Shown here: positions 1 to 54,013 of the stretch, one piece after another | Layout: each line of letters starts with the position of its first letter | How positions within the stretch are numbered: the first letter of the stretch is position 1 | Source of the DNA: Candidatus Nomurabacteria bacterium | Lineage (GTDB): Bacteria > Patescibacteriota > Minisyncoccia > Phycocordibacterales > UBA5272 | Direction of reading: 5' to 3' | DNA length: 64,000 bases | NCBI GenBank assembly: GCA_040376695.1 | Contig: JBEIQD010000001.1 | Span: 217,029-281,028, forward strand | The notes under the pieces: model-generated | Told to the model about the DNA's origin: nothing | Database searches by the model: none | Seen by the model: the letters and a program-made list of their open reading frames with translations, nothing else | Program-made: the position numbers and the translations under genes

Positions 1-572
1 ATAAGAGGGTACTGTCCAATTTCTCGGAGATACATCTGAATACTGTCGTGAGTACTATCTCCCCCAGGAAGCTTAAGCTCATCGTCCATATCAAGAAGGT
101 TTCCTCCTTCAAGAACATCGATACCTGCGCTTTCCATTTTCTGATACAACTCCTCGAGATACATGATATCTGTCTCAATCGTAGGGAAATAACGAATGAT
201 TTCATCATACGTAATAAAACCTCGTTCCTTACCTTTAGTTAGGAGTTCGAGCTCGTTCCCTTCGCGGGTTGTTATTTTCTTTGGCTTCTCGGCAATCTTT
301 GGCTTTGAAGGACCAGTCTTAATAGTAAATGCCTTTGGCTTATACTTTGGTTTTGTTTCAACCTTTGGAACTTTTTTCGTAGCAACTTTCTTCACTACTT
401 TCTTTGGAGATTTTGCTATGACTTTCTTCGTTGTTTTCTTTACAGATGTCTTTTTGACAGATGTCACCTTTTTCTTTGGTGCAACTTTTTTCGCTTGAGC
501 TTTTTTTGCTGCTGGTTTTACCGCAGTTTTTTTCTGTACACTTTTTGATTTTGAAGAAACTTTTTTCGCCAT
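1..572 (-). CDS. rpoD: RNA polymerase sigma-70 factor RpoD, N-terminal part (gene runs off the window start). Not in the ORF track because it has no in-window stop.
   Basis: Minus-strand ATG at 572..570 opens a frame that stays open to position 1. Translation: MAKKVSSKSKSVQKK... (about 95 aa Lys-rich) ...ELELLTKGKERGFITYDEIIRYFP...DSIQMYLREIGQYPL, which matches sigma-70 regions 1.1 and 1.2. The gene sits immediately downstream of dnaG, the classic dnaG-rpoD arrangement. Confidence 0.85.
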   Translation of the reverse strand, partial: MAKKVSSKSKSVQKKTAVKPAAKKAQAKKVAPKKKVTSVKKTSVKKTTKKVIAKSPKKVVKKVATKKVPKVETKPKYKPKAFTIKTGPSKPKIAEKPKKITTREGNELELLTKGKERGFITYDEIIRYFPTIETDIMYLEELYQKMESAGIDVLEGGNLLDMDDELKLPGGDSTHDSIQMYLREIGQYPL

Positions 573-638
573 AATGCGTGTACTCGCGATTATACCACAA
601 TTACACAAAAAGGTCGAGGTACATCAAAAAATAATAAT

Positions 639-47368: not shown

Positions 47369-49924
47369 TTACTTTGCAGCCATCAATTGCTGATGCTCTT
47401 CTGTGTTTAATTCACCACATTTCTTCCACTTCTTTCCCGATCCACACGGACATTCATCATTACGTCCAATCTTTTCTTTTGTAGTACTTGCGTCAACTCC
47501 TCCTTGATTAGGAATAACTGGTACGAAGTTCTGAGCTGCAGCTGCCTGTGCCTGCTGCTGTGCGAAAAATCCGTCTAGATTTTCTATAAAGAGGACGAGC
47601 TCTCCTCGAAGTGTTGCTTCGAGATTCTTGAAAGCTCGAAGGCCTTCTTTCTTGTATTCAACAAGCGGATCTCGTTGTCCGTATGCACGAAGGTTCACAG
47701 AACTACGAAGATGTTCCATAGAATCCAAATGTTCCATCCACAATGTATCAATAATCTGGAGCATCATAACACGCACGATATGGTGCACAGCTTCTTTCGA
47801 ATACTTTTCTTCCTTAGCTTTAATAGTGTCAGCAAGTTCTGGTTTTTCTGCAACAAGTTCTGCAAAGATTTCTTCAACAATTCCCTCATCACCATAGAGA
47901 ATCTTGCGACGCTTACTATAAATACTTGTACGCTGGTGGTTTAACACATCGTCATACTGAAGTGTGTGCTTTCGAGTATCAAAGTGGAATCCTTCAATCT
48001 TTTCCTGAGCTCCTTCAAGGGCGCGAGATACAAGCTTTGAAGCAACAGGCTCATCTTCTGGAATACCGAAACGTCCCATCATGTTTTTAATGTTTGATGA
48101 ACCGAACACACGCATCAAATCATCTTCGAGTGACACAAAGAACTGTGTTTCTCCAACATCCCCCTGACGTCCTGAGCGACCACGAAGCTGATTGTCGATA
48201 CGACGAGCTTCATGACGTTCTGTACCAATAACGTACAAACCTCCGTACGAAAGCACATCTTCTCGTTCTGAATCTGTAGCTGATGGACCTCCCAACTTGA
48301 TGTCCACTCCACGACCCGCCATGTTTGTAGCAATAGTTACTGCACCTTTCTTTCCGGCTTCTGCAACAATTTCTCCTTCCTTCTCATGATTCTTCGCATT
48401 AAGAACAGCATGTGGCACACCTGCACGCTTAAGGTATTCTGAAATTTCTTCGTTCTTTTCAATTGAAATGGTACCAATAAGAACAGGCTGCCCTTTTTCG
48501 TGAAGTTCCTTCACCTTTTTAGTGAGTGCTTGCCACTTACCTTTTTCTGTTTGGAAAATATAATCCTCATGATCCTTACGTCTAATTTCGTTATGAGTTG
48601 GGACAGGTGTAACAACAAGACCATACACCTTATAGAATTCTTCCTTTGAAGTTTCTGCTGTTCCTGTCATTCCTGCAAGCTTTTCATAGAAACGGAAATA
48701 GTTCTGGAATGTGATGGAAGCAAGTGTACGTGACTCTTGTTCAATCTTTACTCCTTCTTTTGCTTCCACTGCCTGATGAAGACCATCTGACCAACGACGT
48801 CCTGGTTGCATGCGACCAGTGAACTCATCCACAATAACAACAGCACCATCACGTACTACGTATTCACGTTCACGAAGAAAGAGTGCTTTTGCTTTAACAG
48901 CTGTTTCTAGGTGGTGCACCTGCTTTACTCCTTCTATAGAGTAAATGTTTCCAATACCGAGTGCGCTTTCTGCTTTTGTGATACCCGCTTCTGTTAAAGA
49001 AATAGCTCGCTGCTTTTCATCTACCGTATAGTCGTCTCCTTCGATAAGATCATTAGCAATGTGTGAAAACTTTTTGTATAAATCACTTGATTCCTGAGCT
49101 GGCGCAGAAATAATGAGTGGTGTACGTGCTTCATCGATAAGGATTGAGTCGATTTCATCCACAATCGCATAATGGTGAGTGTGCTGTGCAATAGCTTCTT
49201 TACTATACCCAATATTGTCACGAAGGTAATCGAACCCAAATTCGTTGTTTGTTCCGTATGTAATGTCTGCCAAGTACGCTTCCTGACGATTACAACTCTT
49301 AAGGAAATCATATACCACTTTGTATGAACCAACTTCATCACGAATAGCGTCTTCTTCTGTTTGAACTTTCGCACTTGAGTCATACATGAATGATGTCTGG
49401 TGGTTGATTACTGAAACAGAAAGACCGAGCGCGTCATATACCTGCCCCATCCACACTGCATCACGACGTGAAAGATAATCATTCACAGTAACAATGTGCA
49501 CACCACGTCCTGTGAGTGCATTCAAATACGCAGGAAGTGTTGCAACAAGGGTTTTACCTTCTCCTGTTCTCATTTCTGCAATGTGTCCACGGTGAAGAAG
49601 CATTCCTCCTATAACCTGTACACGATAGTGCATCATATGGAGCGTTCTTCGAGCACTTTCACGCACAAGAGCAAATGCTTCAGGAAGAACTTCATCAAGT
49701 ACTTTCTTTTCAACACGCTTTAGTTCGTCACCCTTGAGACCAACAAGCTCTTTCATAACGCGAGCCTTAAGAGCAAGACCTCTATTCTTAAGAAGCTCAT
49801 CAGTGAGTCCTTTTAATTCTTCTTCGTACGAAAATACCTTGTCAGCAACAGGTTGGAGAGATTTTATAAGCTTTTTTGACTCGTCTGGGAAAATAGACGC
49901 AATTCCTTTAGAAAATAGAGACAT
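47369..49924 (-). CDS. secA: Preprotein translocase ATPase SecA
   Basis: 851 aa; DEAD-like motor motifs, preprotein cross-linking domain, and a C-terminal zinc-binding CPCGSGKKWKKC. Confidence 0.95.
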   Translation of the reverse strand: MSLFSKGIASIFPDESKKLIKSLQPVADKVFSYEEELKGLTDELLKNRGLALKARVMKELVGLKGDELKRVEKKVLDEVLPEAFALVRESARRTLHMMHYRVQVIGGMLLHRGHIAEMRTGEGKTLVATLPAYLNALTGRGVHIVTVNDYLSRRDAVWMGQVYDALGLSVSVINHQTSFMYDSSAKVQTEEDAIRDEVGSYKVVYDFLKSCNRQEAYLADITYGTNNEFGFDYLRDNIGYSKEAIAQHTHHYAIVDEIDSILIDEARTPLIISAPAQESSDLYKKFSHIANDLIEGDDYTVDEKQRAISLTEAGITKAESALGIGNIYSIEGVKQVHHLETAVKAKALFLREREYVVRDGAVVIVDEFTGRMQPGRRWSDGLHQAVEAKEGVKIEQESRTLASITFQNYFRFYEKLAGMTGTAETSKEEFYKVYGLVVTPVPTHNEIRRKDHEDYIFQTEKGKWQALTKKVKELHEKGQPVLIGTISIEKNEEISEYLKRAGVPHAVLNAKNHEKEGEIVAEAGKKGAVTIATNMAGRGVDIKLGGPSATDSEREDVLSYGGLYVIGTERHEARRIDNQLRGRSGRQGDVGETQFFVSLEDDLMRVFGSSNIKNMMGRFGIPEDEPVASKLVSRALEGAQEKIEGFHFDTRKHTLQYDDVLNHQRTSIYSKRRKILYGDEGIVEEIFAELVAEKPELADTIKAKEEKYSKEAVHHIVRVMMLQIIDTLWMEHLDSMEHLRSSVNLRAYGQRDPLVEYKKEGLRAFKNLEATLRGELVLFIENLDGFFAQQQAQAAAAQNFVPVIPNQGGVDASTTKEKIGRNDECPCGSGKKWKKCGELNTEEHQQLMAAK

Positions 49925-50138
49925 AAGGGTTACATTATAGCATATTTAGAGGCATTTTACCTTAATCAATTTATACAAATTATGTTAAATTTCAATTTCT
50001 AATTATGTGATACTTTTACTCCCAAACTGCTTCAGATACGCGAAGCTTAAGAATTTTTCGAAGAAGATCTAGTTGACCTACATCGCCTGAGAAAAATTCT
50101 GTAGCGACAAAGTAGATGAAATAGTTTTGGAGTAAAAA

Positions 50139-50170
50139 CAAAAAACACTCCGTGGGAGTGGAGTGTTTTT
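50139..50170 (-). terminator. Intrinsic terminator after the histone-like micro-gene
   Basis: aaaaaacactccgtgggagtggagtgtttttt. Confidence 0.55.
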
Positions 50171-50189
50171 TGCAAATCGCAAGCGATGA

Positions 50190-50300
50190 CTATGCACGCT
50201 TTGCTGACTTCTTCTTTGCAACTTTCTTTGTAGCCTTCTTTGCTGCCTTCTTGACTGCCTTCTTTGCTACTTTCTTTGCTGCTTTCTTCTTTGCTGCCAT
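50190..50300 (-). CDS. 36-aa Lys/Ala-rich histone H1/Hc1-like basic micro-protein
   Basis: MAAKKKAAKKVAKKAVKKAAKKATKKVAKKKSAKRA. It has its own TATAAT about 14 nt upstream of the ATG and its own terminator; the upstream part of the ORF-track frame (50301..50408) is unlikely to be coding. Confidence 0.5.
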   Translation of the reverse strand: MAAKKKAAKKVAKKAVKKAAKKATKKVAKKKSAKRA

Positions 50301-50584
50301 AAAATTATTTTTATTATACAAATAAGAGAGTGTTTTGTAATTTGTTTTATGATCACGACCATGATCACTACTCTCTGATGTAAGTATGACACTCATACAC
50401 ATACGCACAAGAGAAAAAAAATTTTTATGTGTGGATAACTCAAACTATTTTTTAAATAAAAAAAATTAAAAATAATTTTAAAAAATAAAAAGAAAATAGT
50501 TGTATCTTTGTACATGCAAACGCGAAGATTTTGCAAAATAAATACATATACCACTACCTACATAAAGCGCTTACATATCAAGAT

Positions 50585-50611
50585 AAAAGCGATGCTCATT
50601 GCATCGCTTTT
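50585..50611 (-). terminator. Intrinsic terminator after the SET-domain gene
   Basis: aaaagcgatgctcattgcatcgctttt. Confidence 0.55.
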
Positions 50612-50628
50612 ATCTTTACCCTTTATTA

Positions 50629-51228
50629 TTATTTATTTTTCTTCTCTGCTTCTTCTGTTTCAGTAACTCCTTTAGCGCCGTATGAATGTTTTTTAGCAAC
50701 ACATCTACATCCGTATGGTGAAATGTATTCTTTCACAAATTCTTCTCCGTAATCATACACAATCTCATCTCCCTCTTTAATATTTTTAATTGCTGATATA
50801 AACACTCTTCCTTTTTTAATATCACTTTCAGCATTCGCTGCTTCTTCACAAGCGTGATTACAATAACGAGCAATGTTCCACCTGACCTGTCCGTTGATTG
50901 TTTTATTACGATTAATTTCGAAAAGATACTGATTCGTTGTTATCTTATCTGATTCCTCTTTATTTAAAATAATTCCAATATACTCGATAATCATCTCCCC
51001 TTTCTTGATATTCTCTCCTGCAAAGAGTCCTAACCCTGCAAGCCCTCTTTTAACCTTAACCGCTTTAAAGTGATGATCTGGTAGATTCTTAGTATTTGGT
51101 GACACTTTTTCAATCACCTTCTTCTTTGATACAGATGCTTTCTTTAAAATCTTTGACTGTTTGTCTAACTTCTTTCCAACTGCTTTCGTAGCCGTCTTGC
51201 TTTTCTTTGTCATAATGCATGAAAGCAT
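50629..51228 (-). CDS. SET-domain protein-lysine methyltransferase with a Lys-rich N-terminal tail
   Basis: GLGLFAGENIKKGEMIIEYIG (GxG/SET-N), RYCNHACEEAN (NHxC motif), EIVYDYGEEF (ELxxDY motif), and a post-SET Cys pair CRCV. Confidence 0.85.
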   Translation of the reverse strand: MLSCIMTKKSKTATKAVGKKLDKQSKILKKASVSKKKVIEKVSPNTKNLPDHHFKAVKVKRGLAGLGLFAGENIKKGEMIIEYIGIILNKEESDKITTNQYLFEINRNKTINGQVRWNIARYCNHACEEAANAESDIKKGRVFISAIKNIKEGDEIVYDYGEEFVKEYISPYGCRCVAKKHSYGAKGVTETEEAEKKNK

Positions 51229-51301
51229 ACTATATATATGTGCCTATGAGCAACATAAAAAAAGAAACCCCGCATAGTGCGAGGCCTCGAATTCAGAACA
51301 T

Positions 51302-51754
51302 TCAATTTGGAGCCAGACCGAGATCGAGGAGAACAACGTTTTTTTCACCGAAGTCATCTTTCACATTGCGATATCCGTCTTGCCAGCCACATTGCTCTCT
51401 AAAGAGACCGCGAATGAACTGACCAAATTGTGGACGAATATAGATTGTCATCGGGAAGAAAACAGCCCCGTAACGTTCCCAGGATTCGGGAATTTCTCCA
51501 CGATGTGCCAACAGTCTGTCGAGAACGCAGGCGTTCGCAGCTCTCTCGATAACCTTGGCAGTTTGAAGCGCTTCAAAAAGTCCACGCCCTGTAATCAATC
51601 CGCCATCCTTTTGTTCCTGAGACTGATACAGGCAGCCCACACCGGAGTACCTTTCCTTATCCCACAGAACAAGACCGCGCCTGAAATGATCCGCCACCCT
51701 CATATCAGGAGGAGACGAGGGCAATGAATCACAGTTGATAATAATTGAAGACAT
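51302..51754 (-). CDS. Hypothetical protein, GC-rich (about 48-50%), likely acquired; alternative start at 51826
   Basis: ORF with clearly elevated GC between the SET gene and valS; no recognisable motif. Confidence 0.45.
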   Translation of the reverse strand: MSSIIINCDSLPSSPPDMRVADHFRRGLVLWDKERYSGVGCLYQSQEQKDGGLITGRGLFEALQTAKVIERAANACVLDRLLAHRGEIPESWERYGAVFFPMTIYIRPQFGQFIRGLFREQCGWQDGYRNVKDDFGEKNVVLLDLGLAPN

Positions 51755-51871
51755 TTGATGCTCCTTGAAACATAGTTGAAGAACGAGTATTATCCGTACA
51801 CTACAATACTTATTAGTAATTGTCAAAAATAGCAGTATTCTAGTGTATTTTTATGATAGGATACATACTAT

Positions 51872-54013
51872 ATGAAACAAGTTCCAGAGCAATTAACTAA
51901 ACCTTTTGATGCAGCTTCTGTAGAAGCCTCTTTATATGACATGTGGGAGAAGAGTGGGTATTTCAATCCAGATAACCTACCTGGTGATAGAAAAGAAGCC
52001 TACACCATCGTTTTACCTCCACCAAACGTAACTGGGGTACTTCACACGGGACATGCAATCATGCTTGGAATTCAAGACACTCTTATACGATACAAGCGCA
52101 TGCAAGGATATAAAGCTTTGTGGCTCCCTGGGACAGATCATGCCGCAATTGCTACACAATCAACGGTTGAAAAGAAAATTTATAAAGAAGAAGGAAAATC
52201 TCGACATGATCTTGGGCGCGAAGAGATGCTTAGACGTATTAATGAGTTCGCACTTGAAAGCCAAAAAACAATACTCGCGCAAACACGTTCTATGGGAGCT
52301 TCCCTTGATTGGTCACGGCTTGCTTTTACCTTAGATGACAAGCGTAACCTTGCAGTACGTACGATGTTCAAGAAAATGTACGATGACGGACTTATTTATC
52401 GTGGACAACGTATCGTGAACTGGGATCCAAAAGGTCAAACAACTATTAGTGATGATGAAACCGTAGCAGAAGAACGAAAAGGAACACTCTATACTTTTAA
52501 ATACAGTAAAGACTTCCCTATTGCTATTTCTTCAACACGACCTGAAACAAAAGTTGGAGACGTGGCAGTTGCTGTTCATCCTGATGATGAACGATACAAG
52601 GAATATGTAGGGAAGGAATACTCAATGATGTTTGCTGGATGTCCTATTACCATCAAAGTGATAGCTGACACTGCTGTTGAAAAAGACTTTGGGACAGGCG
52701 CTCTTGGAGTAACACCAGCGCACAGCGCGATCGACTGGGACATTAAAGAACGACATGGACTACCTTCACGACAGGTTATCAATGAATACGCAAAGATGTT
52801 CGGACTTGAAAATGAAGAGTTAAATGGTAAGAAAGTTACCGAAGCGCGTGAATATATCGTGGAGTGGCTTCGTACAGAAGGCCTTCTTACGAATGAAGAG
52901 GAAGTAACACAAAATATTCCAACAGCAGAACGAACTGGTGGCGTTATTGAGCCACTACCTAAGCTTCAATGGTTCGTTGCAGTAAATAAAACATTCAATC
53001 ATTTTGGAAAAGAAACAACGCTCAAGAATCTTATGATTCAGGCAGTTGAAAGCAAAGAGACTTCAATCATCCCTGATAGATTTGAAAAGGTGTACTTCCA
53101 TTGGATCGAAAACTTGCGTGACTGGTGTATTAGCCGTCAGATTTGGTATGGGCACCGAATCCCAGTTTGGTACAAGGGTGATGAAGTTCATTGTGGAACA
53201 GAAGCTCCAACAGGAGAAGGTTGGGTACAAGATGAAGACACGCTTGATACATGGTTCTCTTCTGGTATGTGGACCTTCTCAGCACTGGGCTGGCCAGAAC
53301 AAACAGAAGATATGAAGCTGTATCACCCTACTTCACTGCTTGAGACAGGCCCAGATATTATTTTCTTCTGGGTTGCTCGTATGATTCTCTTCTCAACCTA
53401 CGCGCTTAATGAGGTTCCTTTTAAACACGTATACCTTCATGGACTTGTTCGAGATGCGCAAGGGCGCAAAATGAGTAAGTCTTTAGGAAACGCACTTGAC
53501 CCTCGTGAGCTTTCACTTAAATACGGAACCGACTCATTGCGTATGGCACTTCTTGTAGGGAACGGACCTGGAAATGATCTTAAGCTTAGTGAAGACAAGA
53601 TAAAAGCATACAAGCTTTTCTCAAACAAAATATGGAACGCGACACGGTTTGTTCTTGATAGAACAGCTGACCTGGAATCCCCTGCTCCACTTACAGCTGA
53701 GGACACAGCGCTTTACGATGCTTGGAGAGTGGTACAGGCCGATATAACTTCGGATCTAGAGAATTACCGTCTTCATCTTGCGTCGGAGAAAATATATGAC
53801 TACTTCTGGAAAACTTTTTGTGATCAGATTATTGAAACACATAAGGTTCGTATCGCGGAAGATAAAGATAAGACGAGCGCACAAACACTTCTTATAAAAC
53901 TTCTTCGCGAACAACTTATTGTTCTTCATCCGTTCATGCCGTTTATCACGGAGGAACTTTGGAAGTACGTCAAAGATGATACAGACAATCTCTTGATGGT
54001 AACTCATTGGTAG
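51872..54013 (+). CDS. valS: Valine--tRNA ligase (short form, 713 aa, lacking the C-terminal coiled-coil)
   Basis: HIGH region PPPNVTGVLHTGHA, KMSKS, and the ValRS-type editing/CP1 region. Confidence 0.88.
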   Translation: MKQVPEQLTKPFDAASVEASLYDMWEKSGYFNPDNLPGDRKEAYTIVLPPPNVTGVLHTGHAIMLGIQDTLIRYKRMQGYKALWLPGTDHAAIATQSTVEKKIYKEEGKSRHDLGREEMLRRINEFALESQKTILAQTRSMGASLDWSRLAFTLDDKRNLAVRTMFKKMYDDGLIYRGQRIVNWDPKGQTTISDDETVAEERKGTLYTFKYSKDFPIAISSTRPETKVGDVAVAVHPDDERYKEYVGKEYSMMFAGCPITIKVIADTAVEKDFGTGALGVTPAHSAIDWDIKERHGLPSRQVINEYAKMFGLENEELNGKKVTEAREYIVEWLRTEGLLTNEEEVTQNIPTAERTGGVIEPLPKLQWFVAVNKTFNHFGKETTLKNLMIQAVESKETSIIPDRFEKVYFHWIENLRDWCISRQIWYGHRIPVWYKGDEVHCGTEAPTGEGWVQDEDTLDTWFSSGMWTFSALGWPEQTEDMKLYHPTSLLETGPDIIFFWVARMILFSTYALNEVPFKHVYLHGLVRDAQGRKMSKSLGNALDPRELSLKYGTDSLRMALLVGNGPGNDLKLSEDKIKAYKLFSNKIWNATRFVLDRTADLESPAPLTAEDTALYDAWRVVQADITSDLENYRLHLASEKIYDYFWKTFCDQIIETHKVRIAEDKDKTSAQTLLIKLLREQLIVLHPFMPFITEELWKYVKDDTDNLLMVTHW

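Follow-up and report, generated by a model that had tools for sequence, protein, structure and literature searches.

A lysine/alanine micro-gene and a SET-domain methyltransferase gene as conserved neighbors in a patescibacterial genome

Introduction

Are a gene for a SET-domain protein lysine methyltransferase and the gene for a minute Lys/Ala protein just downstream of it a writer and its substrate, or have the two been inherited side by side? The question is raised by a 64-kb stretch of DNA (the window) from a Paceibacteria-like bacterium (Patescibacteria, candidate phyla radiation or CPR) with a reduced genome, the minus strand of which carries, in this order, an open reading frame (ORF) of 150 or 174 codons (51302..51826), the SET gene (50629..51228), a micro-ORF of 36 codons (50190..50300) and secA (47369..49924). 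The original prediction, made from the letters of the DNA, had placed the two central genes in a minimal-genome bacterium, which agrees with the assignment to Patescibacteria, and had described them as a chromatin-like module of writer and substrate.

The reading preferred here, with a probability of roughly 60%, is that the SET gene and the micro-gene are neighbors by synteny, that the SET protein acts on endogenous basic proteins and that the micro-protein serves as a polycation; the two genes would then not be a dedicated two-gene module. The evidence that the SET protein modifies the micro-protein consists of gene adjacency within a single lineage, and the unannotated family to which the micro-protein belongs is a more solid novelty than the pairing of enzyme and substrate.

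The micro-protein gene

The micro-protein gene extends from ATG to TAG at 50190..50300 on the minus strand and encodes the 36-residue MAAKKKAAKKVAKKAVKKAAKKATKKVAKKKSAKRA, which consists of 17 K, 1 R and 12 A with no acidic residue among the remainder (K 47%, A 33%), has a net charge of +18 and repeats KK pairs every four residues (KK-x-x). Neither a hydrophobic or signal segment nor a known arrest motif is present. The spacer from the SET stop codon to the micro-ORF is 328 nt, in line with the approximately 330 nt given originally, and this micro-ORF is the sole K/A-rich example in the whole window.

Conservation was assessed in loci returned by a SET-alignment scan with one genome per species, which gave 80 loci, 49 of them (L001-L049, the clade set) with a tail-bearing SET protein at least 54% identical to that of the window. 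In every one of the 44 clade loci with more than 306 nt of sequence after SET, a same-strand ORF of 21-50 aa beginning MAAKKK or MAVKK follows downstream, so that the synteny expected for the micro-ORF was found intact and not disrupted. All 45 aligned micro-ORFs are intact, with start and stop codons kept and with lengths of 66-153 nt that are all multiples of three; codon position 3 holds 239 of the 384 nucleotide differences (62%), and codon changes are more often synonymous (180) than non-synonymous (111). The micro-ORF is a real, conserved, protein-coding gene. The absence of a Shine-Dalgarno sequence is no argument against its translation, because a motif of that kind precedes just 8 of the 49 genes in the window.

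The family appears to be undescribed, widespread and never annotated. Exact look-up of ten micro-protein ortholog sequences found none in a collection of 15 billion proteins, from which it follows that the micro-ORF has never been predicted by gene callers. A protein-database search with a 40-aa ortholog gave 2019 word candidates, none of them significant, because the sequence is short and of low complexity for a database of that size. No Pfam or NCBIfam family was matched at E<=1, the chlamydial Hc1 (PF07432) and Hc2 (PF07382) models included, in a search where the composition filters of HMMER may suppress such matches, and PADLOC returned nothing for the micro-protein. The likeness to eukaryotic H1 tails and to Hc1/Hc2 that had been proposed thus holds for composition, which is that of an H1 tail or Hc2, and does not extend to a match with either Pfam model. 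A search of the literature gave no paper that links SET to Patescibacteria/CPR or H1-like proteins to CPR, or that contains the peptide string.

The micro-gene is a transcription unit of its own (50410..50138), independent of SET, as the description of a separately promoted and terminated gene had implied. Its candidate promoter (50383..50410, minus strand) consists of TTGTGC (50410..50405), a 16-nt spacer and the extended -10 element TGtCATACT (50391..50383), in which the TG and the A-T-A-x-T positions do not vary across an alignment of 45 upstream regions. The general form of the -10 element is TGnCATACT, with TGaGATAAT in the deeper clade B (L044, L046, L047, L049), relatives show a -35-like TTGTAT or TTGTGT, and the 110 nt before the micro-ORF ATG are strongly conserved. 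Transcription would start at this upstream promoter. A second promoter-like site on the same strand (50313..50341; ATTACA, a 17-nt spacer and TATAAT, with 10 of 12 consensus matches) lies inside the leader 14 nt before the ATG, is partly conserved and is an alternative to the upstream one.

Between promoter and ORF lies a leader element (50323..50376, minus strand) in which an outer AGAGAGT...ACTCTCT encloses the hairpin TGATC-AUGGUCGU-GATCA. The order is AGAGAGT about 6 nt past the -10 element, the hairpin, an A-rich stretch, ACTCTCT, an A/U-rich tract and the ATG. The hairpin loop carries an invariant GTC (GGTCG), and pairing in the inner hairpin amounts to 95.9%, its changes including compensatory ones (GATCG/CGATC, GACC/GGTC, GATG/CATC) and G.U ones on the sense strand; the outer helix gives no information on pairing because it is invariant. 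That GGTCG is always the hairpin loop is true in clades A and B and in L087 and L184, and is not clearly so in other lineages that lack SET. A covariance model of the leader (R1) matches the window once (61 bits) and, across 100 metagenome loci, L147 alone, itself a member of the clade; it therefore reveals no regulon from which a function could be read. Rfam 15, run on 49800..51400, gave no family at gathering score and only sub-threshold hairpin matches. As an RNA element the leader may serve autoregulation, or it may bind a protein.

An intrinsic terminator (50138..50173, minus strand) with a 14-bp stem and a T-run follows 16 nt past the micro-ORF stop codon, and a terminator is found at this place in 44 of 44 relatives and in 8 of 8 loci examined that lack SET. 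After SET there is a terminator-like hairpin on the same strand (50582..50614, -20.2 kcal/mol) 14 nt past the stop codon, with a weaker T tail, and a comparable hairpin occurs in 38 of 46 relatives. In relatives that have gained cassettes after SET, the micro-ORF has kept its promoter and leader, which is a further argument that the unit is independent. As proposed, the micro-gene would comprise promoter, leader of about 76 nt, 36-codon ORF and terminator, about 230 nt in all.

Synteny of the micro-gene and SET

Although the adjacency of SET and micro-ORF holds in 44 of 44 loci, which is the part of the module claim that stood, several observations argue against a dedicated module. The whole block of valS/SET, micro-gene, secA and the next gene is syntenic in L001-L049, so that the SET-micro adjacency is essentially one inherited evolutionary event in one clade. 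Each of the two genes forms a transcription unit of its own, and in 8 of the 44 loci 0.9-3.1 kb have been inserted between them, including reverse-transcriptase/Avd-like cassettes of the diversity-generating retroelement (DGR) type.

The micro-ORF family also exists mostly in the absence of SET. A metagenome scan with a degenerate DNA pattern for MAAKKKA[AV]KK returned at least 120 loci and, among the matches listed, SET lies upstream of the micro-ORF in L147 alone, again a member of the same clade; of the low-GC Patescibacteria-like loci listed with at least 1 kb of upstream sequence, 13 of 14 are without SET. Eight SET-less loci (L083, L087, L097, L102, L118, L129, L143, L172) carry the micro-ORF and its terminator at a distance of 66-362 nt before secA; this secA has 41-61% identity with that of the window (57-61% in seven of the eight) and its own -10 element close to the ATG, past the micro-ORF terminator. 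The readable upstream ORFs of these loci vary, being MurB-like in L083 and Ddl-like in L087, and a SET hidden Markov model found nothing upstream of their micro-ORFs. GGTCG occurs 39-54 nt upstream in 13 of 21 low-GC micro-ORFs, compared with about 4% expected by chance, which argues that these micro-ORFs are homologous and not a convergent product of low complexity. Conversely, 31 control loci around distant SET genes (approximately 480 kb; 10 kb on either side) contain no K/A micro-ORF.

In the proposed history, the MAAKKK... family of Patescibacteria would ancestrally have been placed upstream of secA. The simplest course of events would be an old micro-secA neighborhood, next to the micro-gene of which a tail-bearing SET gene arrived in one clade and was then inherited. 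The company that the polylysine micro-gene keeps with secA is seen across deep lineages of Patescibacteria.

The SET protein

The gene upstream of the micro-ORF (50629..51228, minus strand) encodes 199 aa, of which residues 65-161 (50746..51036) match the Pfam SET model PF00856 over its full length (1-105 of 105) at 77.7 bits (cut-off 22.4, E=1.1e-21), as was expected when the SET domain was first recognized; beyond SET, Pfam gives only a sub-threshold PR domain in this protein. The domain contains GLG, YLFE, NHAC and YDY motifs, so that the GxG, NHxC and YDY signatures are intact, and in 67 aligned homologs the S-adenosylmethionine-binding G65-L-G67, Y101, N124-H125-x-C127 (NHAC here) and, in the catalytic-Tyr motif ELxYDY, E155 and Y158-D-Y160 are invariant. 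An acidic insert, EEAANAES, follows NHAC.

The post-SET motif C174-R-C176-VAKK-H181 (50686..50709, minus strand), which we take to resemble the MLL motif CNCGAKKC, forms together with C127 a predicted Cys3His zinc site, a CxCx4H variant whose four ligands C127, C174, C176 and H181 never vary in the 67 homologs. Of the post-SET cysteines that had been noted, C174 and C176 are therefore present, and the final ligand is a histidine that replaces the third cysteine.

The SET gene is an annotated, uncharacterized member of a known superfamily. The 1317 homologs retrieved are mostly from Patescibacteria, and those with names are proteins of metagenome-assembled genomes of Patescibacteria, Paceibacterota or "Gracilibacteria", annotated at most as "SET domain-containing protein." The best sequence matches in the PDB are the SET domains of KMT2A/C/D (E about 3e-14). 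In an AlphaFold2 model the SET core is predicted with confidence scores (pLDDT) of 70-94, and a Foldseek search with this model gave 371 PDB matches at E<=1e-3, with TM scores of up to 0.75 on the target, led by the SET domain of MLL1 (E 5.8e-10, 30-33% identity) and then G9a. Mean identity among relatives is 72% for SET, compared with 81% for secA and 70% for valS, and conservation like that of housekeeping neighbors points to a core endogenous role. We take the protein to be a genuine protein-lysine methyltransferase that, judged by its motifs, is probably active.

The Lys-rich N-terminal tail, which had been put at about 50 aa, comprises residues 1-48 (51085..51228, minus strand) with 15 Lys. 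Residues 1-46 are modeled as disordered (pLDDT<50), and no docking of the tail into the active site is seen in the AlphaFold2 model. The tail motif LDKQSKILKKGS is conserved, with K23 and L28 invariant and S25 nearly so in the alignments. Most likely the tail would tether the enzyme to nucleic acid. It is missing from the distant relatives L050-L080, and the SET proteins outside the clade, which are 131-170 aa long and include those of other Patescibacteria, Caulobacteraceae and Chitinophagales, are tail-less.

The first five SET codons (MLSCI; 51213..51228, minus strand) are kept as "ML..IM" in relatives, and they overlap the promoter-like sequence TATAGTATGCTTTCAT; because of this overlap, the true start may be Met6 (51213), which would give MTKKSK....

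Comparison with known systems

The KMT2/MLL-SET1 (COMPASS) enzymes, which provide the best sequence and fold matches, share with the SET protein the GxG, NHxC and YDY motifs and a post-SET motif of the form CxCx-AKK-C/H. In contrast to them, the protein is only 199 aa long, has no other domains and no WRAD-binding (N-SET/Win) regions, ends its zinc site in a histidine, and carries the EEAANAES insert and the disordered Lys-rich tail. KMT2/MLL is thus its nearest relative and not its subfamily. The effectors LegAS4/RomA of Legionella and BaSET of Bacillus anthracis are likewise bacterial SET lysine methyltransferases; unlike those proteins, which act on host histones, the SET protein is without ankyrin or effector domains.

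Chlamydial cpnSET/NUE (CT737) with Hc1 and Hc2 likewise combines a small bacterial SET protein in a reduced genome with Lys/Ala-rich, H1-like condensers. Hc1 (125 aa) and Hc2 are, however, far larger than the 36-aa micro-protein. cpnSET is reported to bind Hc1/Hc2 and to methylate Hc1 (PMC3980110), whereas NUE failed to methylate Hc1 and, as a type III effector, is secreted and acts on host histones (PMC3980110, PMC6426960), and the chlamydial results have been called discordant (PMC6426960). The chlamydial enzyme had been named as the only well-known bacterial precedent for the locus, a statement that has to be corrected: that precedent is contested, and others exist, as Go1-SET of the archaeon Methanosarcina mazei methylates MC1-alpha and BaSET methylates H1 (PMC3980110). 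Go1-SET is likewise a minimal prokaryotic SET protein whose substrate is an endogenous small basic DNA-binding protein, but the system is archaeal, MC1 is folded with one methylated lysine and is not a low-complexity polycation, and no gene adjacency is reported in the text consulted (PMC3980110). By analogy, and on the ground of synteny, the pairing in the window is best described as a variant of this chlamydial and archaeal theme of a SET protein plus a small basic chromatin protein.

The micro-protein itself has the same Lys/Ala composition and the same AKKA/KKxx units as the H1 C-terminal domain, Hc2 and the repeats of the mycobacterial proteins HBHA and Hlp (MDP1). It differs from all of these in that it consists of nothing but the repeat and lacks any globular or coiled-coil domain, and the likeness is compositional, homology not being establishable at such low complexity. 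In HBHA, 20-26 methyl groups are found on the Lys-rich repeats (PMC8467707), from which it is clear that Lys/Ala repeats in bacteria can be heavily methylated.

Discussion

The mechanism proposed for the locus is one of two neighboring, independent transcription units. The SET protein would be a minimal KMT2/MLL-like protein-lysine methyltransferase, predicted to be active and tethered to nucleic acid by its tail, while the micro-protein would be a free-standing Lys/Ala tail like those of histone H1, chlamydial Hc2 and bacterial HU and SWIB proteins. As an encoded polycation, it would most likely bind and compact DNA, or coat RNA or ribosomes. The C-terminal domain of H1 and Hc2 bind nucleic acid electrostatically, and by this analogy the micro-protein should bind DNA or RNA in the same manner. 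The enzyme would most likely methylate lysines of endogenous basic proteins that are bound to nucleic acid, and the micro-protein is one plausible substrate among others that include the enzyme's own tail, the N-terminal tail of RpoD, HU and ribosomal proteins. The analysis shows that both genes are real and conserved, which fold and motifs the SET protein has, how the neighborhood is syntenic and that each gene has a promoter and a terminator of its own; that the proteins bind nucleic acid, that SET is catalytically active and that the two are related as enzyme and substrate is what we infer.

In the metagenome scan the MAAKKKAAKK head is also found as an N-terminal extension of HU-like proteins (L100, L119, L190) and of SWIB/MDM2-like proteins (L108, L126, L179, L193, L200); the SWIB domain has been discussed in Chlamydiae as co-occurring with SET. 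A primary sigma factor of the RpoD type (1..573, minus strand, running off the left edge of the window) contains DSIQMYLREIGQYPL and has an H1-like N-terminal tail of about 110 residues rich in Lys, Ala, Val and Pro, a potential SET substrate and a sign that tails of this kind are common in this genome. Together the Lys-rich heads and the RpoD tail suggest that such sequences are common nucleic-acid-binding appendages and alternative substrates for the enzyme.

A number of observations weigh against passive neighborhood. SET and micro-ORF are spaced by about 300 nt (<500 nt) in 36 of 44 loci, and the spacing between micro-ORF and secA is looser: of the 36 loci in which a downstream secA was located, 21 have fewer than 700 nt there. 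In clade B the SET-micro pair is kept and secA is not within 4-9.7 kb, the Lys-rich tail of SET occurs together with the micro-ORF neighbor, and the contigs on which SET appeared to be lacking are short, so that a SET gene may be present elsewhere in those genomes. The tight adjacency, its persistence in clade B and the co-occurrence with the tail are a hint of something more than passive synteny.

These observations leave some room for a dedicated pair in which the micro-protein is the principal physiological substrate of SET, an explanation that is possible but doubtful. Methylation of the 17 Lys would tune binding to the nucleoid or RNA or shield the peptide from proteolysis; protease protection has been proposed for the methylated Lys/Ala repeats of mycobacterial HBHA and Hlp. 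In its favor are the invariable adjacency, mostly at about 300 nt and maintained in clade B after secA moved away, and the fact that the tail-bearing SET subfamily, in loci with enough sequence, never occurs without a downstream micro-ORF. With 47% Lys and presumably no fixed structure, the peptide would fit the peptide groove of a SET domain, and after removal of Met its N-terminus, AAKKK, may loosely resemble ARTK of H3, on which the closest SET relatives act. Precedents are cpnSET/Hc1 and Go1-SET/MC1-alpha (PMC3980110) and the methylated HBHA repeats (PMC8467707). Against it stand a single clade with general synteny, and hence a single evolutionary event, the separate transcription units with DGR/reverse-transcriptase cassettes tolerated between them, the many micro-ORFs that are SET-less and the other SET genes that lack such a neighbor, and the contested chlamydial precedent (PMC6426960). 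What did not survive of the writer/substrate claim is thus its modular character.

A broader version of the same idea is that the micro-protein is a polycationic counter-ion of chromatin or RNA for which one clade recruited a tail-tethered KMT2-like SET protein as writer, giving a minimal bacterial "tail plus writer" chromatin system whose evolution was independent of histones; this we regard as unlikely, if worth stating. Were the SET protein to methylate the micro-peptide, the two would be the simplest known writer/substrate chromatin pair, and a substrate of 35 residues that can be synthesized chemically would make the control of polycation-nucleic-acid binding by lysine methylation directly testable. 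Such a result would also bear on the contested chlamydial SET/Hc1 case. Should SET have other proteins or a host as its target, what remains is ordinary conserved synteny. The poly-Lys/Ala micro-gene family, with products of 13-50 aa, bears on the annotation of small ORFs in general and on how ultra-small cells compact their nucleoid.

Rather improbable is a role of SET as a host-directed nucleomodulin, an effector that would act on host histones or chromatin proteins, with the basic tail as a nuclear or nucleoid targeting signal and the micro-gene as an unrelated neighbor. Examples of nucleomodulins are LegAS4/RomA of Legionella and NUE of Chlamydia, and Patescibacteria are typically episymbionts, which would suit this explanation, as would the eukaryotic KMT2 proteins as closest relatives in sequence and fold and the resemblance that the tail may have to a bipartite basic targeting signal. 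The LegAS4 effector model (NF043024) is the sole NCBIfam match of the SET protein, but it scores 36.6 bits compared with a cut-off of 550 and covers the SET core only. Neither a secretion signal nor a secretion system is evident near SET, the rate at which the gene evolves is as low as for secA and valS, its neighbors in a stable block of housekeeping genes, and the known hosts of these lineages are mostly prokaryotes.

It is likewise improbable that the micro-protein is a lineage-specific ribosome-associated protein and SET a ribosomal-protein methyltransferase, for which the tiny K/R-rich bS22 and bL37 of actinobacteria and the eukaryotic SET enzymes Rkm1-4, which methylate ribosomal proteins, offer a comparison. 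A strong promoter, a structured leader of the kind typical of autoregulated ribosomal-protein genes and a strong terminator would fit, as would a phylum-wide micro-gene in a neighborhood of translation and secretion genes (valS, secA). However, no sequence similarity to any ribosomal protein family was found in Pfam or NCBIfam, and the wide variation in length and repeat number (21-50 aa in the clade, 13-59 aa among stand-alone micro-ORFs of the metagenome scan) argues against a fixed rRNA-binding site.

That the micro-ORF regulates secA in cis as a SecM-like leader peptide or attenuator, or is a small RNA, as its position immediately upstream of secA across deep Patescibacteria lineages, the hairpin terminator between the two and the structured, conserved 5' leader might suggest, is very unlikely in view of the coding substitution pattern and in-frame length changes, a terminator that the micro-ORF does not overlap and that is followed by secA's own -10 element, insertions of 1-8.7 kb between micro-ORF and secA in 14 loci, the absence of secA nearby in clade B, and the lack of the hydrophobic segment and known arrest motif of SecM/MifM-type leader peptides.

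Other features of the window

The valS gene (51872..54013) is divergent from SET. Downstream of the micro-gene, secA (47369..49924, minus strand) has its own TATAAT 9 nt before the ATG, and TATAAT-like hexamers stand 9-18 nt before the ATG in several genes of the window, secA included, which suggests leaderless mRNAs or mRNAs with very short leaders.

Next to SET on the valS side lies ORF150 (51302..51754, or 51302..51826 if the start is TTG; minus strand), which encodes 150 aa without a Pfam, NCBIfam or PADLOC family or a relative in the PDB. Its GC content is approximately 49%, compared with 41% for the window, and unlike most genes there it has a strong Shine-Dalgarno sequence, AAGGAG. L001, a relative with 98% identity, does not have it and has 71 nt between valS and SET, and a 33%-identical homolog lies just downstream of a micro-ORF in L153. 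ORF150 is probably a recent insertion.

The DGR-like cassettes between SET and the micro-gene (L016, 11004..13455; L045, 6844..9333; L005, 10852..11508) encode a reverse transcriptase with YIRYADDFV and an Avd-like four-helix protein, and their target proteins end in ...W.W.Y.WLD..W.AN.PSAVL.

A different small basic ORF, MGKNAHGVSPKKIRSRPHKTAKRLAAKAARNAAKKK, occurs in L066 (19850..19960, minus strand) about 9 kb from a distant tail-less SET gene, and a 42-aa relative of it lies in L076 (12203..12331, minus strand) about 2 kb from another such gene, both in other Parcubacteria.

Very short ORFs of the MAAKKKAAKKPAAKKKAAKKK type (13-31 aa) are common on high-GC contigs (55-75% GC) of soil metagenomes (L084, L098, L103, L124, L127, L141, L146, L163, L183 and many others). 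They are sometimes tandem duplicates, many are followed by strong hairpins, and they look like a separate, apparently unannotated family of poly-Lys micro-ORFs outside the Patescibacteria.

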